This document shows positions 2,744-38,772 of a stretch of DNA of 44,370 nt, piece after piece; the stretch's first letter is position 1; each line of letters begins with the position of its first letter. The notes under the pieces are model-generated. The model did not search any database, was not told where the DNA came from, and saw only the letters and a list, made by a program, of their open reading frames with translations. The position numbers and the translations under genes were made by a program. Source of the stretch: a virus (Duplodnaviria; Caudoviricetes); IMG/VR virus record IMGVR_UViG_3300016466_000283, positions 1 through 44,370 of that record; one strand, written 5' to 3'.

Positions 2744-2758
2744 TCAAAATGATATAAT
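2744..2758 (+). promoter_or_regulatory. Phage-specific (late-type) promoter TCAAAATGATATAAT driving sRNA-1
   Basis: Same motif found before the virion gene blocks. Confidence 0.75.
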
Positions 2759-2764
2759 TGTAGT

Positions 2765-2841
2765 GCCAGTTAGTAGTGTTGCTGGCTTTCTGCTTTGCAA
2801 TCCGTGTGTAGTTTATATGAGTTTTCTGCACGCGGATTTTT
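2765..2841 (+). ncRNA. sRNA-1: 5' hairpin with loop UAGUAGUGUU plus intrinsic terminator
   Basis: Stem GCCAGT 2765-2770 / GCTGGC 2781-2786; terminator stem 2799-2811 / 2826-2838 with two G.U pairs then a T-run; no ORF. Confidence 0.75.
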
Positions 2842-2844
2842 AGT

Positions 2845-2873
2845 TTGACAAAATGAAAAAAGTATGATAATAT
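2845..2873 (+). promoter_or_regulatory. Sigma70-type promoter of the replication operon
   Basis: TTGACA-17 nt-TAATAT with extended TG. Confidence 0.7.
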
Positions 2874-15379: not shown

Positions 15380-15430
15380 AGTATTACACTCTTCCTTTGC
15401 TCTTTTATAGTATACATTCTGTAATCATTC

Positions 15431-15594
15431 ACACAAACACTGTGTGTAGAGAATTTTATAGAGTTCTTGCCAATTTAGAGGTGTATTGAATTTGACAACT
15501 TAATACATAAGCTTGCCTCGCAGTCAAACTTTGGTCCACACTTTGTACCTTCTTAGCGGTTGGGTATAAAATTCTTTGCACACAGTGTTTGTGT
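15431..15594 (+). ncRNA. Structured RNA closed by a 30-bp stem
   Basis: 15431-15460 pairs with 15565-15594; both non-Watson-Crick positions are G.U on the + strand. Confidence 0.65.
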
Positions 15595-15610
15595 ATATAA
15601 TAATAACAAT

Positions 15611-16024
15611 ATGAGATATACTGAAGCAGAGTTAAAACGAATTCAAGATAAACAAAATGGTAAAAAAATTATACCTTTAGAAGATGAAGAGTATGATTTA
15701 ATTGTAAAATATTTAGATGATATGGGTTTTATTTATACTCATATACCAATGGAAACATATACAAGCTCTTGGAATGTTAAGAAAAGAAATAAAAGAATAG
15801 GGGTAAAAAGCGGTTTTCCAGACTATGTTATTATAATACCTTATTGGTGGGTAGGTAAAAGACATAATGTACTCTTATTTGCTGAAATTAAACGTCGTAA
15901 AGGGTCAACGTTAAGAGCTAACCAGAAGGAATGGTTGCATAATTTAAGAAGTTGCAATGAATTAGCAGAAGTATTTTATGGAGCTGATGAATTAAAAGCA
16001 TACATTGACGCATTAAGAACTTGA
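15611..16024 (+). CDS. VRR-NUC domain nuclease
   Basis: GVKSGFPD..LFAEIKR..Q.EW; ATG 15611 preferred over TTG 15560. Confidence 0.85.
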   Translation: MRYTEAELKRIQDKQNGKKIIPLEDEEYDLIVKYLDDMGFIYTHIPMETYTSSWNVKKRNKRIGVKSGFPDYVIIIPYWWVGKRHNVLLFAEIKRRKGSTLRANQKEWLHNLRSCNELAEVFYGADELKAYIDALRT

Positions 16025-16049
16025 CATAATTAAATAAATATGTTATAGT
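16021..16049 (+). promoter_or_regulatory. Sigma70-type promoter of sRNA-2
   Basis: TTGACA-17 nt-TATAGT with extended TG. Confidence 0.8.
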
Positions 16050-16053
16050 GCTA

Positions 16054-16136
16054 GTACCCTTTCTGATAATTTGGGTGCATCGGATACGCCTAAGACCAGA
16101 TATATCTAGCAATAGATTGTCTGGTCTTTTTCTTTT
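16054..16136 (+). ncRNA. sRNA-2: 5' hairpin plus intrinsic terminator, antisense to the leftward operon leader
   Basis: GTACCC/GGGTGC hairpin; terminator aagaccagata..tgtctggtctt plus T-run; shares 8+11 nt with the + strand at 25997-26018. Confidence 0.75.
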
Positions 16137-16147
16137 ACATAAAACTA

Positions 16148-16176
16148 TTGACAAATTTGACACTTTATGGTATATT
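16148..16176 (+). promoter_or_regulatory. Sigma70-type promoter of the recombination operon
   Basis: TTGACA-17 nt-TATATT with extended TG. Confidence 0.75.
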
Positions 16177-16204
16177 AAAAAAGTAATAACTAAACACTAC
16201 ATTT

Positions 16205-16525
16205 ATGTATAACATAAGTACAAATAGCAAAGAACACGCAGAAAAAATAAAGTCCAAATTAGAACTAGAACTTATTGACCTTCAATTACAAAAAGCTAAA
16301 ATTGAAAGTGATTTATATTACTATTCGCTATTAGAAAAAGATTTGCCACTATCTAAATCAGATAGATTAACAGTTAGTCAAGATAAGAAAAATCTATCTA
16401 TGTTAAGACAAGTTATTGATTTCTTTAGCACAAAAGTTAATACTATATTAGAAGATAATATTCAATCAGATGAAAAAACTACTATCAAATATACTAAAAG
16501 CAAGTCTACTAGTCGTAGGTCTTAG
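16205..16525 (+). CDS. Hypothetical coiled-coil protein
   Basis: 106-aa ORF after the promoter; AACACTAC just upstream. Confidence 0.7.
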   Translation: MYNISTNSKEHAEKIKSKLELELIDLQLQKAKIESDLYYYSLLEKDLPLSKSDRLTVSQDKKNLSMLRQVIDFFSTKVNTILEDNIQSDEKTTIKYTKSKSTSRRS

Positions 16526-20475: not shown

Positions 20476-21795
20476 TTATTTCTTATATATAACCTCAAAT
20501 GTTTTAGGTGGTTTTATTAACCCTTGAATTATACCAATACTTTCTACAATAGGAACTATTTGCAACACTAATAATAAAAAAGTATTTATATATATATGTA
20601 AATTATTACCAGTCAATTTATAAGATTTTAAATTTACATATAAACCAACATAATATATTGCAAATGAGATACCAGTTATTAGTGATATTGGAATTACTAA
20701 AAGTGTTGGGATAAAAGATTTGCCTACAATAAGAGTTATTATAGTAATAATTGGAATAGTCCAAGATAATGACCAATTTATTAACATAAAACTTAGTATA
20801 TATTTACATTTTAAAGAGATAGTATTATCTAAGATAACTGTTTTAATACCTGTAAACCACCTTTTTCTTTGTTTAATAAGGTCTTGAATAGTATGAGGAG
20901 ACTGTTCTTCTAATACTCCATTAACCCAATTAAACTTAAACTTTTGTTCCATAGCTCTTAATGAAAACTCAGCATCTTCAGTTATAGATTTACCTTTTAA
21001 ATCCCAAGTAATAGTGTCTGATACAATTTTAGGAATCAACATAAATGAACCGTGCATACCAAAAACAGGGGTATTCATATTAGAATATTGAAATCTAAAT
21101 CTACCTAAATCATCACCACTTCTTACAGCATCTATAACTTCAATAGGAATAGTTTTAGATAGTAAATTATTTTGATAACTTGTAATATCTGAATTATAAG
21201 TTATTAACCCTTGACCTATAACATCTTTATTATTAGTTTTAAAGAACTCATTGATACCTAAATACAATTCATAAGTCATTGTAGATTCTTCATCGCAATG
21301 AAAAGTATAGTCTGTTTGAATAAACTGTCTAACATATTCTAATGCTCTGGCTTTATATAAAACATTATTAGAAGTTTTATAGTGTTTAGGAACTAATATA
21401 TAGTTAACATTATCAATCCTATATTTTTTAGGAATTTTAATGTCCGTAACTACAGCATAATTAACTGAATAAAAGTTAGGTTTCTGAGCAATAGAATTTT
21501 TAATTGCTGAATGCAGTGCATTTACATTATTGCCTCTTGATACCCATAATACAGTATACGAGGTTTTAGATGGAGGATATATTTTAGGAGATTGAGGTTT
21601 ACCTTTTATCAACCCTATAAAATTAGACACAGCATATATAAGAGGTGTAATCCATATTAACTGCCCAATCATTAACATATAATCAAGTGTAGAATTAGGA
21701 ATTGCAGGTTCAGTATATTGAATAATTAATATACCAAATATAATCCACATTAATATTGGTATAATAATATGGAGATAGTATGTAGTGTTTTTCAT
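20476..21795 (-). CDS. Membrane GT2 glycosyltransferase, egghead-like
   Basis: KARALEY, HCDEES, GDDLGRFR.QY, GMHGSF, ITED, EQSP..IKQRKRW (QxxRW); multiple TM helices. Confidence 0.85.
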   Translation of the reverse strand: MKNTTYYLHIIIPILMWIIFGILIIQYTEPAIPNSTLDYMLMIGQLIWITPLIYAVSNFIGLIKGKPQSPKIYPPSKTSYTVLWVSRGNNVNALHSAIKNSIAQKPNFYSVNYAVVTDIKIPKKYRIDNVNYILVPKHYKTSNNVLYKARALEYVRQFIQTDYTFHCDEESTMTYELYLGINEFFKTNNKDVIGQGLITYNSDITSYQNNLLSKTIPIEVIDAVRSGDDLGRFRFQYSNMNTPVFGMHGSFMLIPKIVSDTITWDLKGKSITEDAEFSLRAMEQKFKFNWVNGVLEEQSPHTIQDLIKQRKRWFTGIKTVILDNTISLKCKYILSFMLINWSLSWTIPIITIITLIVGKSFIPTLLVIPISLITGISFAIYYVGLYVNLKSYKLTGNNLHIYINTFLLLVLQIVPIVESIGIIQGLIKPPKTFEVIYKK

Positions 21796-21799
21796 AAAG

Positions 21800-22045
21800 T
21801 TATTTTAATATCATCTCTAGCCAATCTTCAAACAGAAGTATCTCATCATCATATTTTTTAGTGATAATAGTCTGTCTGTAGTCTTTATATCTATTGTACC
21901 AAATAAGAGCATTTTGAGTAGAGACAAGGTTTTGTAGTCGTTCTCTGTCTTTTGAATTGTATAGAAGAGCATCATACTCCTCTTGCAATCTATCTAACTC
22001 TTCGCATTTCTGAGTGTACAATTGTTTATAGTTTTCTCTAGCCAT
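21800..22045 (-). CDS. Hypothetical protein
   Basis: 81-aa ORF; start overlapped by AACACTAT. Confidence 0.75.
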   Translation of the reverse strand: MARENYKQLYTQKCEELDRLQEEYDALLYNSKDRERLQNLVSTQNALIWYNRYKDYRQTIITKKYDDEILLFEDWLEMILK

Positions 22046-22055
22046 AGTGTTTTAC

Positions 22056-22622
22056 TTATTTAATTATTGAATAATTTTCATTCAAGAACTGTAATTTATA
22101 TATATCTAATTTTCCTTTATCATTGAATTCTGCATAATAATAAATATATATATCTGGTTGAAATATATGTGCCTTCTCTTCTCCTGCAAACTTTTTAGTT
22201 CCACCATTTCCTCTTCCATATTCATCTCTTTCTATTACAGTATATGTAGTTAAAAAATCAGGAGCAAACTTTGTAAATTTATAATTTTCTATATAATATT
22301 GAATATAAATTTGTTTATCATCTTCTAAAAGTTCTTTTATTTCTGCTATAGCTTCATCTGTAAAATTTGTATATAAAATTCTTTTTATACAACACATTTT
22401 ACTCCAAACTATAGTTTCATTATTACTAATTTCATCTATTTTATTAAATTTATTTATATAATATTTTATGTGGTCTTTTGTATTATCTGATGTAATTATT
22501 ATTTTGGCATATACTGGACTCCAATAATCTTTACAATATTCAGGGGCTGATGAAAAAAAGCGAGCCATAAATCCCAATACATCAAGAGGATAACCGTTTG
22601 TATTCCATATATTCTTTTTCAT
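22056..22622 (-). CDS. Hypothetical protein
   Basis: 188-aa ORF; start overlapped by AACACTAT. Confidence 0.75.
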   Translation of the reverse strand: MKKNIWNTNGYPLDVLGFMARFFSSAPEYCKDYWSPVYAKIIITSDNTKDHIKYYINKFNKIDEISNNETIVWSKMCCIKRILYTNFTDEAIAEIKELLEDDKQIYIQYYIENYKFTKFAPDFLTTYTVIERDEYGRGNGGTKKFAGEEKAHIFQPDIYIYYYAEFNDKGKLDIYKLQFLNENYSIIK

Positions 22623-22631
22623 AGTGTTTTA

Positions 22632-22931
22632 CTTAATTATTATTTATTCCATTTAGATTTACTAGTATTCCAAGCTCTATAAAGTTTAATTTTTTAATAT
22701 TGTAGCAGCAATTAATAATAAACCAATTATTTGAATAATATAGAATATCTTACTAATTATTCTTTTAATTTTATCTTTCCTAGTATATAAATTACCAGTA
22801 TAAGTATAAAATATTGTATTAATTGTATCTATTATTGGGATAATTAATATAATTGTTATAATAAATATTGTTGTCATAGGTTTATCTTAATTATTATTTA
22901 CTCCATTTAGATTTACTAGCATTCCAAGCTC
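22632..22931. repeat. 46-bp direct repeats (22632-22677 and 22886-22931) flanking one gene
   Basis: cttaattattattta(t/c)tccatttagatttactag(t/c)attccaagctc, 2 mismatches. Confidence 0.9.
22686..22877 (-). CDS. Small two-TM membrane protein
   Basis: 63 aa, Ile-rich. Confidence 0.65.
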   Translation of the reverse strand: MTTIFIITIILIIPIIDTINTIFYTYTGNLYTRKDKIKRIISKIFYIIQIIGLLLIAATILKN

Positions 22932-23448
22932 CAATACCTCCTCTGGAGATTTTGAAAGCCATTGCCTCTACATTTGTCCTTGCATCAAACGGGCTTACAT
23001 ATTCTCTACCCATTTGTCTTAATGTACCAGCCCAAGTACCAGCAATGAATTGTCCACAACCTGAAGCACTTGAATTTCTATTCTTTGCATTTGCATTTCC
23101 GCCAGACTCTGCCTTGATAATTCTCCGCATAAGTCCAGCATCCACTCCATACTTTTGAGACATCTCGTCTACATAGGAGTAGCAGTCTCCCCCTGTATTG
23201 TACTCTATTTTAGGAGAAACTGCCTTTCTCGCAAGAGTTTTAGGTTTAGGTATATCTTTTATAACCTCTGCCTTCTTCTCTTCAATAGGAGGGATATTTT
23301 TAGGTACTATGATTGTCTCTGTACTCGCCACACTCTGAATCACTTTATCTGATTCCAGTGTGGTAAGGGATAAATCTCTAGCTATTACTGTATTATTTGC
23401 CTCAATACCAATAGCTATTGTCAGCAGTGCCAGTAGTACGTATTTTTT
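22894..23448 (-). CDS. Lytic transglycosylase (SLT-like) with N-terminal signal/anchor; start uncertain
   Basis: IIKAESGGN, ASGCGQFI..TW, NVEA; frame stays open upstream of GTG 23343 through KKYVLLALLTIAIGIEA to a stop at 23524-23526. Confidence 0.8.
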   Translation of the reverse strand, partial: KKYVLLALLTIAIGIEANNTVIARDLSLTTLESDKVIQSVASTETIIVPKNIPPIEEKKAEVIKDIPKPKTLARKAVSPKIEYNTGGDCYSYVDEMSQKYGVDAGLMRRIIKAESGGNANAKNRNSSASGCGQFIAGTWAGTLRQMGREYVSPFDARTNVEAMAFKISRGGIGAWNASKSKWSK

Positions 23449-23560
23449 ATAATGTGCTTTTGTTCCAGTATAGTGTTGATAAGGTCTGTAAAACTGTTTG
23501 ATATATGTATAATTAATTATAATCTAGTCAGAGACTAGTAACAGTCATAATCAGTGTGAG

Positions 23561-23725
23561 AATATAAAGTTCTCAAGAGAGGAGGCAAGGTTTGACTTGC
23601 AGACGTGGAATTCTTGCCAGTAAACATTATGTGCATTCCCCGACCCACGAATTTTTAGTCGGGATTATTCACCCTGTGCAATATCGGCTCACTGTCCGAC
23701 ACTCCTCTACTGAGAACTCTATATT
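23561..23725 (-). ncRNA. Structured RNA closed by a 24-nt inverted repeat
   Basis: Arms 23561-23584 / 23702-23725; GC-richer interior with hairpins; TGATATAAT on the - strand at 23750-23742. Confidence 0.65.
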
Positions 23726-23757
23726 GTAAATGTACAAGTTTATTATATCATAGGCAT

Positions 23758-24162
23758 TTATTTAATATTTAATAACTCTGGATTCTCGTAAATATTTCCT
23801 ATTATCTCACACTCAGAATTGTGCCAATATAAATTATCGTGTGCCTCAGTTTGCAAATATTTCATTCCTTTTTGCGAAACCCAAAAACAACCTTTTTCTT
23901 CTATTACTTTGCAAAATTCTTTTCCTGTGGCAAAAACACATTCAACAATATCTCCATCAAAAATATCTCTACCCGTTTTATCCTGAAGTCCAGTATATTG
24001 CATAAGCTGGATGTCGTCTATTTTTCGTTGTTCTAGGTGCCAGTCAACGCCTCCATTACCGTCATTTGTTGGTATTGGCACGGCGACCCATGATTTGTTT
24101 TGCCACTGCTCCACCGGGTGCATCCGCTCCCCGTCCCAAGCTCTGAATTTAATCTCTCTCAT
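23758..24162 (-). CDS. YopX family protein
   Basis: MREIKFRAWD..LMQYTGL.DK.G.DIFDGDIV..EIIGNIYENPELL. Confidence 0.95.
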   Translation of the reverse strand: MREIKFRAWDGERMHPVEQWQNKSWVAVPIPTNDGNGGVDWHLEQRKIDDIQLMQYTGLQDKTGRDIFDGDIVECVFATGKEFCKVIEEKGCFWVSQKGMKYLQTEAHDNLYWHNSECEIIGNIYENPELLNIK

Positions 24163-24166
24163 ATGT

Positions 24167-24313
24167 TTAATCTTTATCTTCTAATATTATATCATCTTGT
24201 TTAATTTTGTACTTATCTTTGAGTCTATCTTGAATAAACTTCTGTACTCGCTTCTCTGATTCTATTGCATTCACAAAAATGTTTTGAATTTCTTTTAGCT
24301 CATCTGTATACAT
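24167..24313 (-). CDS. Hypothetical 48-aa protein
   Basis: Hand translation MYTDELKEIQNIFVNAIESEK...EDKD*; fills the gap. Confidence 0.65.
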   Translation of the reverse strand: MYTDELKEIQNIFVNAIESEKRVQKFIQDRLKDKYKIKQDDIILEDKD

Positions 24314-24318
24314 AGTAT

Positions 24319-24501
24319 TTAATCTTTAATTCTAAATTGCTCCCGTAGTGATTCTATAACCTCCATCTTCTCATATATTGTTAATATGTTTGTGCGGTCT
24401 ATAATCTCTTTTGCCCTTGCAAAAGTTATCTCTCTTGAATATATTTTGCTTGCCAAGTGTTTGAATGTTCTCTCTTGCCAATATGTGTCTCTGCTTTCCA
24501 T
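24319..24501 (-). CDS. Hypothetical protein
   Basis: 60-aa ORF; start overlapped by AACACTAT. Confidence 0.7.
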   Translation of the reverse strand: MESRDTYWQERTFKHLASKIYSREITFARAKEIIDRTNILTIYEKMEVIESLREQFRIKD

Positions 24502-24513
24502 AGTGTTTATAAT

Positions 24514-24714
24514 TTAATTTAATAATTCTCCATCCCCCAAGTCTACAATATGCTTATATATAGCATAATAATCATCTGTATACTGGTTGTCATTGTGGTC
24601 TTCTTGCTCTTGCCTCTCTATTTCTGCTTCTGCTTCCTCTATTGTGTTATATATTCCTAATATATCCCCAGTCTCTCTTATTTCTACTGTGTATAATTCT
24701 GCTAATTTTTCCAT
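24514..24714 (-). CDS. Small acidic protein
   Basis: 66-aa ORF. Confidence 0.7.
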   Translation of the reverse strand: MEKLAELYTVEIRETGDILGIYNTIEEAEAEIERQEQEDHNDNQYTDDYYAIYKHIVDLGDGELLN

Positions 24715-24718
24715 ATAT

Positions 24719-24904
24719 TTATAATTTAATCTGATAATAACTCTGATAACTTTGTCTTAACTCATCTGCCATTGCTATACAATGGTCAATCAAGCTTTTG
24801 TCTTTTACCTCGTGCAATTCATAGTAGTATTCTATATCATCAAGAATACAATTTTCTATAAATTCATCCAGTATACTTTGAATTGCTTCTTCTGCTTTGC
24901 TCAT
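24719..24904 (-). CDS. Small acidic protein
   Basis: 61-aa ORF. Confidence 0.7.
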   Translation of the reverse strand: MSKAEEAIQSILDEFIENCILDDIEYYYELHEVKDKSLIDHCIAMADELRQSYQSYYQIKL

Positions 24905-24936
24905 ACCTTTGAATTTAAACTTATACTAATTGATAA

Positions 24937-25107
24937 TTATTTTAATATAGATGGATATATTTCTTTCAATTCCTTTTGTACCTCTTCTAGTTGTCTATAT
25001 AATACCTCTTGATATATGCTAGTCTCTCCTATATTCTGAATTATAGTATTTATATCTAAGAATATTTTGTTTAGTTGTACTTTGTTTAGTTCTTGTAGTG
25101 TTGACAT
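24937..25107 (-). CDS. Hypothetical protein
   Basis: Start moved to ATG 25107 (MSTLQELNK); the ATG at 25158 lies inside a hairpin. Confidence 0.65.
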   Translation of the reverse strand: MSTLQELNKVQLNKIFLDINTIIQNIGETSIYQEVLYRQLEEVQKELKEIYPSILK

Positions 25108-25183
25108 ACTTATAATATTAACTAATAATCCAAACCCCCGCCCCTTGCAATTATGCAAGAGGCTAGAAGTGTTTATAATTTAA

Positions 25184-25363
25184 CTATTTAATATATTCAA
25201 TTTTGATGCATTTTGCCATTAAGTCATTTTCACCATTTCCTAAGTTGAAATATCTATTTAAATAATAGTTTTCTATAGTTTTATTATCACCATTCACGGT
25301 ACTAATAAAATTGACCCCATTGTCAAAATATACTTTTACAGTTTGCCTTTGTAGTGTTTCCAT
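25184..25363 (-). CDS. Hypothetical 59-aa protein
   Basis: Hand translation METLQRQTVKVYFDNG...CIKIEYIK*. Confidence 0.7.
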   Translation of the reverse strand: METLQRQTVKVYFDNGVNFISTVNGDNKTIENYYLNRYFNLGNGENDLMAKCIKIEYIK

Positions 25364-25666
25364 ATGTTTAAAATTTAAAATAATTAATTATTTATTTAGC
25401 CACTCATTAAACCCAAACCTTGTGAAGGTTTTCCTAATGCATAAATCTTTTAGTTTATAACTAGATAGGGTATAAATTCTATAAACAAACCTTTTATTCT
25501 TCCATAGTGTTTTGTGGGCTAATAGTTTACAAATGAATTTTTGCATATATCTAAAATTAAAGTTTTAATAATAATTGTTTTATAGTTTCCTAAAGTTGGT
25601 ATATAAAAGACTCTATCTATAATATAGTTAGTACATTATCTTATAAAGTCTTTTATTTTTTAAATG

Positions 25667-25801
25667 TTAGCTTTGATTCAGTGTATTTTGTAAAAATATT
25701 ATCTTTTTATAGACTAAATCGGCTTTTTTATTGTTGGCATTGTATTTGAAAAATATGCGAAAATACTCTTTTGCAATACTAAGTTTAATATAGTTAATCA
25801 T
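25667..25801 (-). CDS. Hypothetical 44-aa protein
   Basis: Hand translation MINYIKLSIAKEYFRIFF...NQS*. Confidence 0.55.
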   Translation of the reverse strand: MINYIKLSIAKEYFRIFFKYNANNKKADLVYKKIIFLQNTLNQS

Positions 25802-25819
25802 TGTAGTGTTTTTAATTGT

Positions 25820-25978
25820 TTATAAAGTTTTAATTTGTTTTAATTGCTTGATTTCATTGTCAATTTGTTGTTTTAATGTATCCAAGCTACTTGATATTAA
25901 ATAAGGATATTCATTCAGCCAACTATTGGCAATATATAAGTTGTCATTTTTAACAATATCATATTTACGATATTTCAT
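25820..25978 (-). CDS. Hypothetical 52-aa protein, first gene of the leftward operon
   Basis: Hand translation MKYRKYDIVKNDNLYIANSWLNEYP...KTL*. Confidence 0.65.
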   Translation of the reverse strand: MKYRKYDIVKNDNLYIANSWLNEYPYLISSSLDTLKQQIDNEIKQLKQIKTL

Positions 25979-26092
25979 ATGTTGTAGTGTTTAACTTGAT
26001 AATTATTTGCATCGGATAAGAGATTGACAACTGTTGACGGCTACTTTATTACTTATGAGCTCGCGGTCGTTGTTCTCTCTCTCATCTGATAA
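25979..26092 (-). promoter_or_regulatory. Structured 5' leader of the leftward operon carrying both sRNA target sites
   Basis: atcagatgaga..tcttatccgat stem; sites at 25984-25991 and 25997-26018. Confidence 0.55.
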
Positions 26093-26096
26093 TAAT

Positions 26097-26125
26097 AGTA
26101 TAGCATATTTTCTTAAACTTGTCAA
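26097..26125 (-). promoter_or_regulatory. Sigma70-type promoter of the leftward (probably early) operon
   Basis: TTGACA-17 nt-TATACT with extended TG on the - strand. Confidence 0.85.
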
Positions 26126-26132
26126 ATATAAG

Positions 26133-26141
26133 TTATCCACA
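26133..26141 (+). promoter_or_regulatory. Consensus DnaA box
   Basis: TTATCCACA just upstream of the leftward -35. Confidence 0.4.
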
Positions 26142-26410
26142 AAATAGATATAACCTTTTATACAAGCGGTATTATAGCAATTTATACCATAATATTATTT
26201 ATGCAATAGATATAGAATAGACAAGATATATTTATATTTTGCTAGTTTATATTTTAAGGGTACTTTAGTATAGCTTTTGTAAAAAGTCTTGCGAGAGGGG
26301 GCATTTTTTAAGTATTCGCTAGTTTATGCGGTTTGTTTGTTATCAATAGTCTTTTTATTCAATGCAAGGGATATTTTGTTTATTTAGAGGCGGGCGATTC
26401 AATATTAAAA

Positions 26411-26570
26411 GGGGGTACACCTAGGGGGGCGGGGGGTACAAGGGGAGGGGTAGTGGTAGGTTCTACATACAAACAAAAAATAAAAACACAGACATACACA
26501 GAAAAAAAATATTTATACAAAAGAAAAAATAAAATACAAAAACAGAATAAAAAACCAAAACAAAAAAGAC
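26411..26570 (+). other. G-tract cluster followed by an A-rich tract
   Basis: GGGGG-tacaccta-GGGGGG-c-GGGGGG-tacaa-GGGG-a-GGGG, then about 100 nt dominated by A-runs. Confidence 0.8.
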
Positions 26571-26716: not shown

Positions 26717-27262
26717 ATGTTATATATGGGGATGGTGAAGAACAAGTTAAAGGTGAAGGCAGGTAGACCGAAGAAGGGTACTAGGAAGTATAAGGTAAGT
26801 GGTAAGGTAACGGCAGAGAAGGGGTATAAGGCATTACCGCAGGATTGGAAAGAGGTTATATTGGGGATGTATAGTGAGGGGGCAAGTGATATAGAGGTAA
26901 TGAGGCAGATATGGGAGTGGAGGGGTAGTTTTAGTAAGGATTTATGGGAGAGGTGGATAAAGGAGGAGGCAAGTTTTAAGGAGGTAATAAGTACGGGGAA
27001 TGTATTAAGTCAGGCTTGGTGGGAGATGAATGGTAGGAAGAACATAGCGAATAAGGGGTTTAACAGTGTGTTATGGTATATGAATATGAAGAATAGGTTT
27101 GGGTGGGCGGATACGCAGAGTATAGAGCATAAGGGGAGTATAGAGCACGTGGGGGTGGTTAGGTTACCGCACAAGAAGGGGTTAGACTTACCTGAAAACA
27201 GTACTATTTCTGTTAATACAAGTGAACAAACTGTAATAGAGGGTGAATTTACTGAAAAATAG
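26717..27262 (+). CDS. terS: Terminase small subunit
   Basis: GRP, SQAWWE..GR, FNSVLWYMNMKNRFGW motifs; variant late promoter at 26683-26697. Confidence 0.75.
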   Translation: MLYMGMVKNKLKVKAGRPKKGTRKYKVSGKVTAEKGYKALPQDWKEVILGMYSEGASDIEVMRQIWEWRGSFSKDLWERWIKEEASFKEVISTGNVLSQAWWEMNGRKNIANKGFNSVLWYMNMKNRFGWADTQSIEHKGSIEHVGVVRLPHKKGLDLPENSTISVNTSEQTVIEGEFTEK

Positions 27263-27714: not shown

Positions 27715-27993
27715 ATGGCTAAAGATAGTAGATTAGCTAGGGCAGGGGTAAGTGGGTATAATAAACCTAAACGTACCCCTTCACATCCTAAAAAGAGTCA
27801 TATAGTAGTGGCTAAGGTTGGTGATAAGGTTAAGACTATTAGATTTGGGCAGCAAGGGGTGAGTGGGGCTGGTAAGAACCCTAAAACTGCTAAAGAAAAG
27901 GCTCGTAGGAGGTCATTTAAAGCTAGACATAGTAAGAATATAGCTAAAGGTAAGATGAGTGCTGCTTATTGGGCTAATAAGGTTAAGTGGTAG
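27715..27993 (+). CDS. Small basic phage protein
   Basis: K.IRFGQQG..RRRSFKARH..SAAYWA pattern seen in aquatic phages. Confidence 0.75.
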   Translation: MAKDSRLARAGVSGYNKPKRTPSHPKKSHIVVAKVGDKVKTIRFGQQGVSGAGKNPKTAKEKARRRSFKARHSKNIAKGKMSAAYWANKVKW

Positions 27994-28021
27994 AAGTAAT
28001 AATAATTTAATAAACACTACA

Positions 28022-28948
28022 ATGGACCAAGAACAACATAAGTTAATATTAGGAAACTCATTAGAAAAATTAAAGGAATTAGAAGATAATTCTATAGATA
28101 GTATAGTTACAGACCCTCCGTATGAATTAGGATTTATGGGTAAGGGTTGGGATAAGTCTGGAATAGCAAATAATGTAGACTTATGGGCTGAGTGTTTAAG
28201 AGTATTAAAGCCAGGAGGACATTTACTTGCTTTCTCAGGAACACGAACATATCACAGAATGGCAAGTGCTATTGAAGATGCAGGATTTGAGGTAAGAGAT
28301 ATGATTGAGTGGGTATATGGGTCAGGATTTCCCAAAAGTTTGAATATCGGAAAAGTTACAGATAAGTTTCTAAAAACAGGCAATGCTTCTTGGAATGGAA
28401 CTGGCGACGGCAGTAATGGTGCTCTGGGATATTCTAAACTACAACATAAGCAGGATTATAGACCAAATGATTATTCAAATAGACATCAAAATAAAGAAAA
28501 GATAACAGAATCACAGGCAAAACATTGGGAAGGTTGGGGGACAGCTCTTAAACCAGCACACGAACCTATCTGTATGGCTAGAAAACCTTTAGCAGAGAAA
28601 AATGTAGCTCAAAATGTACTAAAATGGGGTACTGGTGGTATAAATGTGGATGAGAGTAGGGTGGATGTTGCTGATAGTGAAAAAATAAAACAAGAAGGTC
28701 ATATTAGAAAAAACAACGTAGTTGGTGATAATAGGACTTCTATTGCTGCTGGTCAATTTGGAGATGGTGCTTTCGTTGCAGGAACTGATTTAACTAATGG
28801 CCGCTTTCCAGCCAATTTAATCTTGTCTTGGAGTTCCGACGAATATATGCTAAAATTAGATGTATCAGTAGATGATTTAATCAAACTAAAAAAGCATTAT
28901 GAGAGACCACAGGTTTTACAGGAAAATATGGGAGAAGATGAACGGTAA
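28022..28948 (+). CDS. N6A/N4C DNA methyltransferase, N-terminal fragment (DPPY)
   Basis: IVTDPPY, RVLKPGG, GSGFPKS, GRFPANLI; ATG 28022 preferred. Confidence 0.9.
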   Translation: MDQEQHKLILGNSLEKLKELEDNSIDSIVTDPPYELGFMGKGWDKSGIANNVDLWAECLRVLKPGGHLLAFSGTRTYHRMASAIEDAGFEVRDMIEWVYGSGFPKSLNIGKVTDKFLKTGNASWNGTGDGSNGALGYSKLQHKQDYRPNDYSNRHQNKEKITESQAKHWEGWGTALKPAHEPICMARKPLAEKNVAQNVLKWGTGGINVDESRVDVADSEKIKQEGHIRKNNVVGDNRTSIAAGQFGDGAFVAGTDLTNGRFPANLILSWSSDEYMLKLDVSVDDLIKLKKHYERPQVLQENMGEDER

Positions 28949-29417
28949 GAAAATACCAAAAGGTTTTCATATCCACCATTTAGACGGAGATAAAACAAAT
29001 AATGATATTAAAAACCTAGTTTGTGTTTCACCCCAAGAACATTTTGAAATCCATCGCAAAAACTTTGAACTGTATGGCAATAAAAAAGATTACTTCTCAA
29101 TGACATATTTACAAAGATATTTAGACAAAAAAATAGACTTCTCAAAATATAAAAGACCAGAGATAAGTGAAAAACACAGACAAGCAATTATAAAAGCACA
29201 CAAAGGAAAGACCCACCCAAATTATCTTATAAGTCATTCAGAAGAAACAAAGAAAAAAATGTCAGAGTTTAGAAGTAAGTATGGGACTTGGAACGCTACA
29301 AAATGTAAAGATATAGAAACAGGAAAAATATATATCTCATATTCACAAGCAGAAAAAGATACTGGGTTAGTTAGGAAGACAAAAGTATTTAATCAAAGAA
29401 TAATATGTATAAAATAA
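28899..29417 (+). mobile_element. Free-standing HNH homing endonuclease (NUMOD-type C-terminus) splitting the methyltransferase
   Basis: IHHLDGDKTNNDIKNL..EH; HSEETKKKMS; overlaps both MTase fragments. Confidence 0.85.
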
Positions 29418-30388
29418 ATCAAGAACAATTTAATACCTTACCAGATGAATTAAAATCATTGTATATAAAACTTCCTAATCCTTCCAGTGATGAGGTGAAA
29501 GAGTGTTTTCCTGAAACAAAAACAGGTAAAGCAATTCGTAGTAATTCTGGTGGTAAAACATTTGGTGGAGAAAACATAAAACCTGCTATGGAAGATTTAG
29601 GCTATGAAGATGGTGGTGGCAACGTTTCTCGTTTTTTCAAATCAATACTTTATCAAGCAAAGAGTTCAAAATCTGAACGCAATAAAGGGCTTGACAAGTT
29701 AGTGTTAGTTGATATAATGGAAGTATTAAATAATAATACTACATTATGCGAAAAGAGTTTAATCAAAGAGGTCAAATTAGCACAGCTCCTGGTGGGTATG
29801 GAACAATCGGGCTTCACGGTCACCGCCGTGTCTGGGACACAGAACAAAAGCGTTACCGAATGGAGCATCGGGTTATTTGGGAAAGATACAACGGAAAAAT
29901 ACCAAGAGGACTACAAATCCATCATATTGATGGAAACCCACTCAATAATGCCATTGAAAATTTACAAATGGTTAATTCACTTACTCACAAACGGATACAT
30001 TCAGGATGTGAGTTTAGAGACGGCTACTGGTGGAAACCTTGTAGGAAGTGCGGAGAATTACAGCGAATTGACAATTACTATAAACGAAAAGATGGCATTA
30101 GCTCTTGGTGTAAAAAATGCTCAATCGCCAACGCGGTTGAAAATAAGCGTAAAAGAAGGTAAGTCAGGTCACCCAACCGTGAAACCAATAGCACTTATGG
30201 AATATCTAATTAAAATGGTAACTCCAAAAGGTGGGATAGTATTAGACCCTTTTATGGGTTCAGGAAGTACAGGTGTGGCTGCAAAGAAGAACGGATATGA
30301 CTTTATAGGGATAGATATGACCCCAGAATATGTAAAAATAGCTAAAGCAAGAATAAATGCTACTGAAATAGAAAATAGACTACTATAA
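29405..30388 (+). CDS. DNA methyltransferase, C-terminal fragment (SAM-binding)
   Basis: SDEVKECFP, SRFF, HPTVKPIALMEYLI, VLDPFMGSGSTG. Confidence 0.9.
   Translation: MYKINQEQFNTLPDELKSLYIKLPNPSSDEVKECFPETKTGKAIRSNSGGKTFGGENIKPAMEDLGYEDGGGNVSRFFKSILYQAKSSKSERNKGLDKLVLVDIMEVLNNNTTLCEKSLIKEVKLAQLLVGMEQSGFTVTAVSGTQNKSVTEWSIGLFGKDTTEKYQEDYKSIILMETHSIMPLKIYKWLIHLLTNGYIQDVSLETATGGNLVGSAENYSELTITINEKMALALGVKNAQSPTRLKISVKEGKSGHPTVKPIALMEYLIKMVTPKGGIVLDPFMGSGSTGVAAKKNGYDFIGIDMTPEYVKIAKARINATEIENRLL
29691..29718 (+). promoter_or_regulatory. Internal promoter for the nested HNH gene
   Basis: TTGACA-16 nt-TATAAT with extended TG, inside the MTase ORF. Confidence 0.7.
29746..30162 (+). mobile_element. 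HNH endonuclease fully nested out of frame inside the MTase C-fragment
   Basis: EHRVIWE..IP.GLQIHHIDGNPLNN.IENL..H; C-terminal CRKC..CKKC. Confidence 0.85.
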
Positions 30389-35517: not shown

Positions 35518-38500
35518 ATGGCAAAATCTAAATTTAACCCAGCATTTTATCAGAACTTTACTACTAATGATAAAGGTGAACTTACTTATGATGATAATAC
35601 TTGGAAGCAAATTGATGCAAGAAATGCTGCTATTAAAAAAATAGAAGAAGCTAATGCACTTAAACAAAAGATTGCTGATGAAAGCTATGCTATAATTTCT
35701 CAAGCTCAAAAAGAAAAAGCTGGATTTGAAAGAAAAGCTGCTATTGGTAAAGTTGCTCAAACAATAATTGACCCTCGTATATGGGCTAGAGGTGCTTGGG
35801 GATTGGGTAAAATGTTAGTTGAACCAGTTACAGATGTTGCTGTTACTGGTAGTAAAGCTATTGGTGAACAAAATGCTGCTACTAATTTATATAATCAGTC
35901 TAAAGATTTAGCTGACCAAGCTGCTAAAATAGTTAAAACAGACAGACCACAAGCTGAAGCATTATTAAGACAATCTCAAGCATTGGCTGAAGAGGCTAAT
36001 AAATTTGCACAAGGTAAAGCTACTAAAAAAATAGTGGGAGCTGATGATAAGCTAACTGGCACAGAAATATTTGCTAAGTCTGCTTTAGCTGGATTAACAG
36101 TAGGTTCTTTTTTACCTGTTGGTACTGTTGTAAAAGGTACTGGGGTATTAGCTAATGTAAGTACTAAAGTACCTGCTACATTACAAGCTTCTAAAACTGT
36201 AGCTGTTGGAAATATTATAACTAGAGGTTTAGGACTTGGAGATATTTATCAGGTTGGTAAAGTTGGAGCTCAAAAAGGATTTGGAAAAATAATGGAACAA
36301 ACTATATTTGGACAAGCTATAAAAGCCACACCTCAAGCTTTAACATATGCTGGATTAGGAGAATTAGCAGATGATGATGGAGTAAACAATTATTGGGGAA
36401 GTGTTGGAACTAATGCTATTGGTGCATTTGGAGTAACTTTAGGATTAGGTTATGGAGCTAAAGTATTAGGTTCTGTTGCTCAAGCTGGAGTTTCTGATAT
36501 TAGTAAAATAGTTAATAAAACAGGTGCTGGTGCAGTTACTGATTTAGCTGGTGCTTTGCCTATGCCTAAAGAACCTGCTCAAATTGGTACTACCCAAAGA
36601 TTAATGTTGCCAGAAGCTACACAAGCAACAACTACAATAGATGGAAAACAAGTAGGATTGCCTACAAGTTCATTTTCTAAACTAGGAGCTTTTGACCCAC
36701 AAGAGACTATTCCTATGGTAGATATTACTGAAACCATTAAAGGTAATAATATTGATTTTAATCCTGATAGTGTAATGAGTATCAATGCTACTCGTAAAGC
36801 TATTGATGATTTAGCTTTGTTAACTGGTAATGAAGTAGGTGGTAAAAAACTAAAAATAAATACTGAAGACCCTAAATATAAAGAGGTTTATAATAATATG
36901 ATTAAACCACTTGTAGATAGGATAAATGAGGTTGATACTAATGTTAAACCAGCTAATGTTAAAGTAGACCCACTTGTTGAAGAGGCTAGGAAGTATAAAA
37001 GTGCTGAGGAGTTTGTAAAGGCTAAAATTAATCTTTATCACGGTACAAGTAAAGATTTTAAAGATTTTGATATTACAAAACTTGGAAGTTATACAGGAGC
37101 AGAAGATGCTCAATTAGGTTTTCATTTTACTGATAATAAAGAAATTGCAGATTTATTTGGAATACCAGAAAAAACTAAACAAGTTAGTATTGATACAAAT
37201 AAATTTTTATCTTGGGAAAATATTGCAAAAAATGATAAAAAAACATTTAAAAATTTATATGAAATATTAACAGGTGAAAAATCTCCTGCAATAAATAGTC
37301 CAGAATTTGACGATATGATTGAAGAATTTGGATTTGATTTAGATTTTAATTGGAGAGATTTTAAAGATGAATTAACAAATCCTCAAGTAATGAAAAGATT
37401 ACAAAAAAAATATGAAGGTATAATATTGCCATTAACAGAAAGTGATGTGTTAATGGCATCATCTAAAAATATTAAACCTGAAGGTTCTGAATTTATTATA
37501 TTTAATCCATCAAAAATACAAACTGAAGAAAGTTTAAAACAAATTTATAATAAATCACAAACTCAACCAACAAAAGCAACCGAAATATCTGCAGAGCAAG
37601 TTGTACAAATAAAGTCTAAATTAGATACCTTTAAAACGGATGAACAAAAAATTGCAGTACAATTAGACCAAGATACAACATTATTACAAACTATTACTGA
37701 TGAATTAAAAACTCATCCTGGTAAAGTATTGCATAAATATGCTAATAAAAGAGAAGGTAAATTACCAGAAATAACTGGCAAAGGTAAAAGCAAATACGCA
37801 AGACAGGGAGACTCATTAATGACTGAATTAGGGTTTGAAAGTGATGATGAAGCTCAGGCAGCTTATGATGCTTTCTTAAAATTAAAAAATCAAAGAGAAA
37901 GTCTAAAAGCAGATATAAGAGAAAGCAAATCTTTCTTAAAAGATATTTCTATTGAACAAAAGACATTACAAAAACAATTGAAGGAAGTTGAGGTTCCAAC
38001 AAAAGCATTGGAACCACAATACATTTCATCAAAAGATGTACAAAAAGTACCTGTTGAAGATGTTGAAATGGAAGTTAATAAAATCTATTCTGAATTAGAA
38101 AATGCAGGTATAAACATAGTACCAGAGCAAGTTAGACTTACTCCAAACATACAAACAGTAGATGATAAATTAGCTAAAGGAGAAATTCCTACTCCAGAAG
38201 AGTTTGACAAAGGTATGAAAGAATATGTCAATTCAACTGGTAAAACTGAGGTTATAGATGGGGTGCAAGAAGAGTTAACAGGTCCAATGAAAAAGTCTGC
38301 TTATGCTGAAAGGTTAAGAAGAGAAAATCCTGACTTAAACTTAAGTTCAATAGATTATCAAGCTGCAGTTGTAAAAGATTTAGAAGAAAAAGCTAATAAA
38401 TTAATTGAAACTAACTTTGATGAAGCTGGTAGAATAGCTAGAAGTATAAATAAAAATTCTAGTTTACAAGATATTAAAATAGGTGAGTTATATATTAATA

Positions 38501-38772
38501 AACTAATAGAATTAGGTAAAAATGATGAGTTAGCACAAGTATATGGTTCATTTAGTGCAGAGGCAACTAGAAGTGGACAAAGAACTGGAATATTGCAACA
38601 AAAGAAAATAGGCACACCTCAATATGCACTTAAACAAGCTACTGACGCTAGATTAAATAAATTAAAGCCTCAAATAGATAAAGAAGTAGCTAAAGTAAAG
38701 CAAGAAATGTCATCAGTGGTAATTGACCAGACAGTGATATTTGATATATTAGATAATATAACCTGTAAATAA
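35518..38772 (+). CDS. Large ejection/polyvalent protein with ADP-ribosyltransferase-like domain
   Basis: 1084 aa; G/A-rich hydrophobic region; LYHGT..F.DFD, GFHFTDN, EFIIFNP. Confidence 0.6.
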   Translation: MAKSKFNPAFYQNFTTNDKGELTYDDNTWKQIDARNAAIKKIEEANALKQKIADESYAIISQAQKEKAGFERKAAIGKVAQTIIDPRIWARGAWGLGKMLVEPVTDVAVTGSKAIGEQNAATNLYNQSKDLADQAAKIVKTDRPQAEALLRQSQALAEEANKFAQGKATKKIVGADDKLTGTEIFAKSALAGLTVGSFLPVGTVVKGTGVLANVSTKVPATLQASKTVAVGNIITRGLGLGDIYQVGKVGAQKGFGKIMEQTIFGQAIKATPQALTYAGLGELADDDGVNNYWGSVGTNAIGAFGVTLGLGYGAKVLGSVAQAGVSDISKIVNKTGAGAVTDLAGALPMPKEPAQIGTTQRLMLPEATQATTTIDGKQVGLPTSSFSKLGAFDPQETIPMVDITETIKGNNIDFNPDSVMSINATRKAIDDLALLTGNEVGGKKLKINTEDPKYKEVYNNMIKPLVDRINEVDTNVKPANVKVDPLVEEARKYKSAEEFVKAKINLYHGTSKDFKDFDITKLGSYTGAEDAQLGFHFTDNKEIADLFGIPEKTKQVSIDTNKFLSWENIAKNDKKTFKNLYEILTGEKSPAINSPEFDDMIEEFGFDLDFNWRDFKDELTNPQVMKRLQKKYEGIILPLTESDVLMASSKNIKPEGSEFIIFNPSKIQTEESLKQIYNKSQTQPTKATEISAEQVVQIKSKLDTFKTDEQKIAVQLDQDTTLLQTITDELKTHPGKVLHKYANKREGKLPEITGKGKSKYARQGDSLMTELGFESDDEAQAAYDAFLKLKNQRESLKADIRESKSFLKDISIEQKTLQKQLKEVEVPTKALEPQYISSKDVQKVPVEDVEMEVNKIYSELENAGINIVPEQVRLTPNIQTVDDKLAKGEIPTPEEFDKGMKEYVNSTGKTEVIDGVQEELTGPMKKSAYAERLRRENPDLNLSSIDYQAAVVKDLEEKANKLIETNFDEAGRIARSINKNSSLQDIKIGELYINKLIELGKNDELAQVYGSFSAEATRSGQRTGILQQKKIGTPQYALKQATDARLNKLKPQIDKEVAKVKQEMSSVVIDQTVIFDILDNITCK

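Follow-up and report, generated by a model that had tools for sequence, protein, structure and literature searches.

A probable free-standing small RNA in a phage of likely Patescibacteria hosts is predicted to pair with the leader of its own early operon

Introduction

The c4 RNA of phages P1 and P7 recognizes its target through two short complementary blocks, and the matched letters of RNA and target set the immunity type. According to the literature excerpts cited here, c4 is a phage-encoded, trans-acting RNA of ~77 nt that represses genes of its own phage (PMC8546580); it is processed from an operon under its own control, and its Rfam family is found in Proteobacteria and their phages (PMC2864571). 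In phage-plasmid P4 the antisense CI RNA pairs with two sequences of the early-operon leader and control proceeds without a protein repressor, and P22 sar, lambda OOP and aQ are small phage RNAs with promoters of their own that repress a phage regulatory gene (excerpts of PMC4825925 and PMC12197685, respectively). Short imperfect pairing in trans is a feature of IsrK of Gifsy-1, 24B_1 of an Stx phage, PreS and VpdS, of which IsrK and 24B_1 regulate genes of the phage itself.

Here we describe a small RNA cassette in a complete 44.4-kb phage record with terminal repeats (the whole stretch of 44,370 nucleotides is hereafter called the window). Its predicted RNA and others of the same design resemble c4 in that they would pair by two short blocks (8+11, 10+11, 8+16, 7+10 and 7+13 nt), and resemble P4 CI in that the pairing concerns two sequences in an early-operon leader. 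Unlike c4, which lies inside the operon that it controls, the window RNA has its own promoter and terminator and is encoded 10 kb from its predicted target on the other strand; RNAs of the same design occupy three different loci in three lineages. CI is cut out of the transcript that it targets, is located between its target sequences and brings about termination, whereas the window gene is unlinked and its target blocks are adjacent to each other, 10 kb from the RNA gene. Similarly, sar, OOP and aQ are encoded opposite their targets and have long complementarity, whereas the window RNA (16050-16136) is trans-encoded relative to its predicted target (25997-26018) and matches it in two short blocks. 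The prophage RNAs mentioned above, whose likeness of sequence was compared through Rfam only, come from enteric bacteria or Vibrio and mostly involve Hfq; in addition, IsrK differs in activating translation and PreS in targeting a host gene.

Rfam revealed no relevant family in the window at the gathering score and no c4 (RF01695) at the cassette and leader loci with E values up to 5. TIGR-Tas systems consist of a tandem array, a Tas (Nop-domain) protein and two spacers that read opposite DNA strands. A guide RNA of this kind was ruled out, as the cassette is a single unit, its blocks match one strand, and the Nop family is found in none of the 54 window proteins. Judged from its sequence, the window RNA likely represses in trans as an antisense RNA, in the manner of P1 c4 or P4 CI, and belongs to neither family. 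Repression of phage early genes by RNA has precedents in P1 and P4, which makes the surprise a moderate one. The available portion of a 2025 review of phage sRNAs (PMC12197685) lists no such case, and in the open-access literature we found no report of such RNAs for phages of Patescibacteria.

Results

A promoter-hairpin-terminator cassette lies directly behind a nuclease gene

A first-pass annotation, made from the letters of the window, had described an sRNA gene with a consensus promoter, a hairpin and a terminator and with no ORF. All three elements lie where that annotation had placed them, as do the three matches it reported to the leader of the leftward operon (Table 1). The -35 box occupies 16021-16026 and shares bases with the TGA stop codon at the end of the VRR-NUC gene, the TG-n-TATAGT element ends at 16049, and the promoter as a whole is among the six best of 121 sites in the 11-28 kb region. 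The cassette folds with z = -4.4, a stability reached by none of 200 shuffles, and ends in a long stem followed by a U tail, which a simple terminator scan missed. The absence of an ORF had to be qualified: a mechanical 54-codon GTG frame (16048-16212) does run across the cassette, but it begins inside the -10 box and its GTG is missing in three diverged homologues. By sequence and conservation, the cassette has what defines a trans-encoded sRNA gene, namely a short, independent, noncoding unit with a promoter and a terminator of its own. The first three bases of the 11-mer fall in the RNA's own stem; if transcription starts at 16056, the 5′ domain of the RNA is predicted to be mostly open.

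Table 1. Positions of the cassette, its predicted target and related features (window coordinates unless a record is named)
Feature	Position	Strand	Remarks
VRR-NUC nuclease gene	15611-16024	+	PF08774; directly upstream of cassette
Sigma-70-type promoter, TTGACA-17-TATAGT with extended TG	16021-16049	+	11/12 consensus; boxes kept in L096, L129, L134
5′ hairpin with 13-nt U-rich loop (16060-16072)	16054-16078	+	fold; stem pairs conserved
Pairing block 1, inside loop	16064-16071	+	8-nt match to leader
Pairing block 2, stem end and linker	16076-16086	+	11 nt, complementary to 3′ arm of leader stem
Intrinsic terminator, stem 16092-16128 and U tail	16092-16136	+	fold
Second cassette, presumed sRNA-1	2745-2845	+	same design; CAAAATG-type promoter; loop matches 25984-25991
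First early gene, 52 aa	25820-25978	-	no Pfam or PHROG family
Structured 5′ leader of leftward early operon	25979-26091	-	hairpin 26010-26091, z = -4.1; start site inferred
Predicted target site	25997-26018	-	-40 to -19 from first start codon
Early promoter, TTGACA-17-TATACT	26097-26141	-	DnaA-box-like 9-mer 26133-26141 just upstream
Leaders with shared motifs	window 25979-26091; L207 998-1190; L106 upstream of terS; L399 6641-6751; L407 ~480-590	- (window, L399)	

The RNA data consisted of assembled contigs only, and four of the 24 listed runs were compared, a set that leaves X16-X18 aside. In run X15 one assembled contig spans 16040-16260 and extends past both predicted ends of the RNA, which means that it covers the locus while ends, strand and level are not readable from contigs; none of the X15 contigs lies over the early leader.

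The stretch behind the VRR-NUC gene is present in six relatives, four of which keep the cassette (G002, L096, L129 and L134), and the cassette is cleanly missing in G001 and L132. In G002, a 95%-identical relative, the cassette is identical to that of the window. Among the cassette-keeping relatives neither the promoter boxes nor the C-G stem varies, and most of the loop is likewise constant: three C-G pairs of the hairpin are unchanged in all four aligned homologues, and the fourth pair is U-A or U-G in three of them. The terminator of L129 and L134, on the other hand, has been replaced by an unrelated hairpin with a U tail (in L129 with a weak folding z of -1.3). L096 and RNA run X12 have a variant in common in which two loop bases are swapped and one linker base is changed, and the 11-mer of block 2, identical in G002, is altered in L096, X12, L129 and L134. 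Conservation of this kind is in keeping with a small RNA in which the 5′ loop is important. In L096, L129 and L134, whose 11-mer is changed, the leader lies off the contig, so that direct covariation within this one cassette is at best conjectural. The cassette is likely a stand-alone gene, and a real small RNA of ~80 nt is very probable.

No homologue of the VRR-NUC gene or of the cassette was found in G006. In G001 (~11435, reverse) and L132 (8258), both without the downstream cassette, a third promoter-hairpin-terminator cassette is located upstream of the VRR-NUC gene; its loop words resemble those of the window RNA and its target matches are at background.

The predicted target is the structured leader of the leftward early operon

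The rightward genes of the window encode virion, replication and recombination functions, and the small genes form a single leftward block (20476-25978). The 9-mer at 26133-26141, upstream of the early -35 box, is one that we take to be DnaA-box-like; this box together with TTGACA is present in 34 of the 401 genomes from the class to which G006 belongs, and a reversed control gave 0. The leader stem is longer in G002 owing to a 2-nt insertion.

Several further observations concern the leader region. The leader carries two short AUG frames on the - strand, one at 26034-26083 (10 codons) and one from 26013 downwards (15 codons), the second of which starts in the 11-mer and overlaps the start of the first gene out of frame. 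The five related early leaders in Table 1 share a purine-rich 5′ arm and paired CGAGC/GCCG motifs, and two such hairpins stand in tandem in G001 and L106; an Rfam match was absent for the shared-motif leader, which is possibly an undescribed structured leader, such as an antitermination or protein-binding element. Between the early promoter and terS a block of G/C runs (26400-26470), possibly a packaging or genome-end signal, is kept in G001, G002, L106 and G006:C86.

The window RNA matches the early leader in two blocks

The sequence at 16064-16071 recurs at 25997-26004 and that at 16076-16086 recurs at 26008-26018 (8+11 nt), an arrangement that would let a + strand RNA from the cassette anneal to the - strand leader between -40 and -19 relative to the ATG at 25978. 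The 8+11 bp pairing proposed in the first pass holds up: it is the best two-block exact match of the RNA 5′ domain on both genome strands, its 8-mer lies in the loop, and its 11-mer coincides in part with the 3′ arm of the stem formed by the leader (26010-26091). Among dinucleotide shuffles, 19 nt were reached once in 2000 trials with gaps of at most 6, and twice in 1000 with gaps of at most 12. With accessibility counted, the net predicted energy at the leader site is -9.5 kcal/mol (10th of 141 sites and fourth on transcribed strands), a modest value because both RNAs must open a stem. In a crude duplex scan of the genome with 60-nt windows, which is dominated by long loose duplexes, the leader fell outside the top 15.

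These values bear on the possibility that the cassette is a mere 3′ end, or terminator, of the VRR-NUC transcript and that the leader match is due to chance. The overlap of the -35 box with the stop codon would suit such a reading, as would the finding that 34 native 38-mers of the genome reach at least 19 nt, several of them known repeats or A/T-rich words. Moreover, the second-best match (8+9 nt) lies at a non-target place, in terS (27098-27116); its energy is better than that of the leader, and 17 nt are reached by 22 of 2000 shuffles. The terS match has an orientation unable to pair with terS mRNA and is nevertheless found at the ~1% level of shuffles, and therefore the shuffle null may understate chance. 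Against this, the promoter boxes and the hairpin are conserved even though the terminator sequence has been replaced, and equivalent RNAs of G001 and G006:C2 at other loci match their own leaders (see below). We consider a chance match improbable, and pairing of the cassette RNA with the early leader at 25997-26018, as predicted from sequence, probable.

Searches for the matched words returned few relatives. The shared two-block pattern occurs in 86 stretches of viral contigs, among which G002 (both loci) and L001 are the only related ones; the leader core pattern occurs at 43 loci, the homologous ones being from the same two records only; and the loop-variant pattern, searched in 10 of 64 parts of the collection, gave 120 loci with no leader homologue among them. 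Fifteen contigs of a group unrelated to the window (L014, L015, L024, L032, L036, L037, L040, L045, L049, L052, L059, L060, L063, L065 and L085) share a conserved, apparently non-coding element around the searched motif.

The loop alone has other matches. Two sites stand in tandem at 24730-24749 (-), ~16-36 nt before the start at 24714, and form a possible secondary target, and another loop 8-mer is found at 24931-24938, before the start at 24904. One might suppose from such sites that the main targets are other mRNAs, for example of host genes or at loop-only sites such as 24730-24749, with the leader being one of several targets or incidental. Indeed, three sites on transcribed strands outscore the leader (including 24741-24752 at -10.1 kcal/mol), the loop is more conserved than the 11-mer, and loop matches of at least 8 nt precede three of 11 leftward genes as compared to one of 43 rightward genes. 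This enrichment is borderline, however, as 85 of 1500 loop shuffles also reach three of 11 leaders, and the sites lie in coding ends where they are explained by conserved Tyr-Gln codons. Judged from the sites within the phage genome, it is doubtful that other mRNAs are the main targets, and we give this reading little weight. As for a further loop match within the leader itself (26085-26093), which the first pass had pointed out, the match is real but is not conserved as a second site: its last two bases, which may fall upstream of the start site, differ in G002, L001 and all three runs covering them.

A second cassette uses a different promoter class

The first-pass annotation had further referred to an sRNA-1 with a site 5 nt from that of the cassette RNA, and had proposed that two sRNAs from different promoter classes converge on one leader in a temporal cascade. 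We infer that sRNA-1 is the cassette at 2759-2845, whose loop indeed matches the leader at the neighbouring position. The two promoter classes are borne out, the cassette RNA being preceded by a TTGACA-type promoter and the presumed sRNA-1 by a CAAAATG-n-TATAAT-type promoter; the latter motif occurs at eight + strand places, several of which precede packaging and virion genes. Convergence of both RNAs as a fixed design is not supported by comparison with G002, which keeps sRNA-1 almost unchanged while its leader has lost the corresponding block (leader score 6 vs 8). In G001 one RNA covers both kinds of block, and in the window a single task may thus have been divided between two RNAs. The promoter class that the cassette RNA shares with its target fits feedback shut-off or immunity at least as well as a cascade. 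In a separate observation, an ACACT/AACAC word complementary to the loop of the second cassette is found within 20 nt of 10 of the 54 window starts.

Matched RNA-leader pairs recur in other lineages

In the records G002 and L001 the first early gene has been swapped, with the junction exactly at the edge of the target site. The new flank adds two pairs, extending the loop match to 10 nt and the total to 10+11 = 21 nt, which none of 2000 shuffles reached; with accessibility counted, no other site on a transcribed strand surpasses that of G002 (-13.7 kcal/mol). G002 and the window are not independent cases, and the two count together as one of three lineages.

The second lineage is represented by G001, a complete relative that is ~78% identical and whose leader differs from that of the window. 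Searching this genome with its own leader revealed, at another place, a cassette of the same design behind a similar promoter; its loop and linker agree with the leader over 8+16 nt (none of 2000 shuffles, the maximum being 20). The leader site is predicted at -21.0 kcal/mol, as compared to -12.0 kcal/mol for the next of 50 sites. This anti-leader RNA is positioned equivalently to sRNA-1, before a replication gene, and has a hairpin in common with it. Its target site lies 119-144 nt upstream of the first ATG, and simple occlusion of the start site therefore cannot be the whole mechanism.

In the third lineage, the more distant phage contig G006:C2, a third cassette matches the early leader over 7+10 nt, a score reached by one of 10000 leader-only shuffles but by 58 of 1000 whole-contig shuffles (17 nt), and the early leader is outside the top six by energy. 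The same cassette matches a second promoter-proximal leader over 7+13 nt (one of 1000 whole-contig shuffles), and both sites are located at -30 to -5 from the start codon.

When six RNAs were scored against six leaders, own pairs reached 19, 21, 24 and 17, the G001 RNA scored 19 on the closely related L106 leader, and the other cross-lineage cells were at most 13. Covariation in relatives, which the first pass had named as a check, is in this sense seen between lineages (own pairs 17-24, cross pairs at most 13), with the complementarity changing together with the target. Likewise, its central proposal of a trans-encoded RNA complementary to the early leader gains from the comparison, as the complementarity is kept and extended in the close relative and recurs, in other letters, in two further lineages. 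The pairs have one geometry in common: the linker would pair with the first leader hairpin at its 3′ base, and the loop with the block that follows downstream. An automatic cassette finder returned eight cassettes in the four records with early leaders, of which one per record best matches the early leader and the remaining four are at background (14-15); its rules were written after the cases were known, making this a consistency check rather than a blind test. On 39 further loci beyond the five main records the finder returned six cassettes, all without an assessable early-leader match. A pairing of the L129-type RNA with the L106 leader was dropped (-21.2 vs -19.8 kcal/mol for the window RNA, with a score of 8).

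Run X12, which carries the loop variant, offers a comparison at finer scale, although its RNA and leader loci are not phased. Base 25999, one of the places predicted beforehand, is missing from one of the two X12 leader contigs; the loss breaks the 8-mer of the window, and at least 6 nt still match the variant loop. Among the substitutions listed for the other X12 leader contig, none is at the site. Similarly, among those listed for X1 and X7, which have the usual loop, none is in the two blocks, and a minor X7 contig lacks 26006 in the spacer.

The shared words might alternatively be DNA operator sites for a protein, given that a palindrome ATC-n-GAT is found at both loci near TTGACA promoters. 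This word occurs 19 times in the genome, however, and is missing from block 2 of L129 and L134; the spacing of the blocks differs between the loci (4 vs 3 nt), and the matched words are wholly different between lineages. The copies, moreover, are direct repeats in the window and inverted in G006:C2, with RNA pairing fitting both arrangements, and a cI-like repressor family is absent among the 54 proteins. We consider operator sites highly improbable.

Phage and likely host

The host of the phage is likely a Patescibacterium. This assignment is based on a terminase 91% identical to that of the window phage in a genome bin titled Minisyncoccia, on a contig of that bin whose transglycosylase gene has 82% DNA identity over 274 nt to that of the phage, and on the early-promoter motif in Minisyncoccia-class genomes. 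The same contig carries genes that, going by their translations, are presumably cellular housekeeping genes. Comparison of the window with an annotated phage collection gave short RecT matches only, and an alignment of the major capsid against genome contigs gave no match. Scans of the 54 window proteins against Pfam and PHROG found neither an integrase nor a repressor family of the cI-like kind, and nothing resembling Ant was recognised among these proteins. Only one of 54 genes has a Shine-Dalgarno-like word.

Three other regions of the window merit mention. A DNA methyltransferase (27959-30388) is divided in two by an HNH/NUMOD3 endonuclease gene, possibly an intron or a mobile insertion; Rfam found no intron there at the gathering score. 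A large virion-type protein (35518-38772) has an ART-PolyVal domain under the Pfam cut-off. Finally, the VRR-NUC gene is preceded by a long structured leader (15380-15610), closed by a 37-nt inverted repeat (15424-15460/15565-15601) and identical in G002.

Discussion

The data are best read as an RNA that base-pairs with the leader of its own phage's early operon and lowers early-gene expression, a whole explanation to which we assign a probability of roughly 0.65. In this proposal, host sigma-70 RNA polymerase would make the ~80-nt RNA from the start of infection, from a promoter of the same class as that of the target. Pairing would begin between the U-rich loop and the A/U-rich block, mostly open, that comes immediately after the leader stem, and the linker would next invade the 3′ base of the stem to give ~19-21 bp. 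The duplex would cover an unstructured region that is likely needed for ribosome loading without a Shine-Dalgarno sequence, and the first gene would be silenced, with the rest of the operon affected via polarity or decay. Build-up of the RNA would lead to a delayed shut-off of the early genes, and an incoming phage with the same leader sequence would also be blocked. Indeed, the RNA has a promoter of the target's class and would for this reason serve as a delayed shut-off or an immunity factor. We lean, if only somewhat, towards repression that takes effect in translation or through decay.

The same pairing site could instead act on transcription: the conserved leader hairpin would be a signal for antitermination or processing, and invasion of its 3′ base would cause early termination or changed cleavage, perhaps with an activating outcome. 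Precedent exists in P4, where CI RNA terminates transcription by pairing with two sequences (excerpt of PMC4825925). Irrespective of how far away the start codon is, the longer of the two blocks falls on or beside the 3′ base of the first leader hairpin in the window, in G002, in G001 and in the early leader of G006:C2, and the common internal motifs of the leaders suggest a function of their own. In particular, the site in G001, far from the ATG, keeps an action through leader structure, as in P4, in contention. By contrast, no intrinsic terminator was seen in the window early leader, which shows no U-rich terminator either free or with the site blocked, and the second target in G006:C2 has a 5-bp hairpin only, directly before the start codon. 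On this evidence we consider an effect on transcription rather unlikely, and retain pairing that lowers early-gene expression at translation or decay as the preferred reading.

A broader idea, which we offer only tentatively, is that repression in these phages of Patescibacteria is of an RNA-only, lock-and-key type. A movable promoter-hairpin-terminator cassette, with loop and linker letters fitted to the early leader of each lineage, would replace a protein repressor and create immunity groups. If this were true, the phage would be kept quiet or superinfecting kin excluded, and the loop variants of L096 and X12 would represent diversification.

Next to nothing has been described of gene control in phages of Patescibacteria, and the mRNAs here are without Shine-Dalgarno sequences. 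Free-standing antisense RNAs matched to their own early leaders would constitute a concrete, testable control switch in these phages. They may reveal a mode of antisense repression on leaders that lack a Shine-Dalgarno sequence, for which the pairs of the three lineages would be ready specificity controls.
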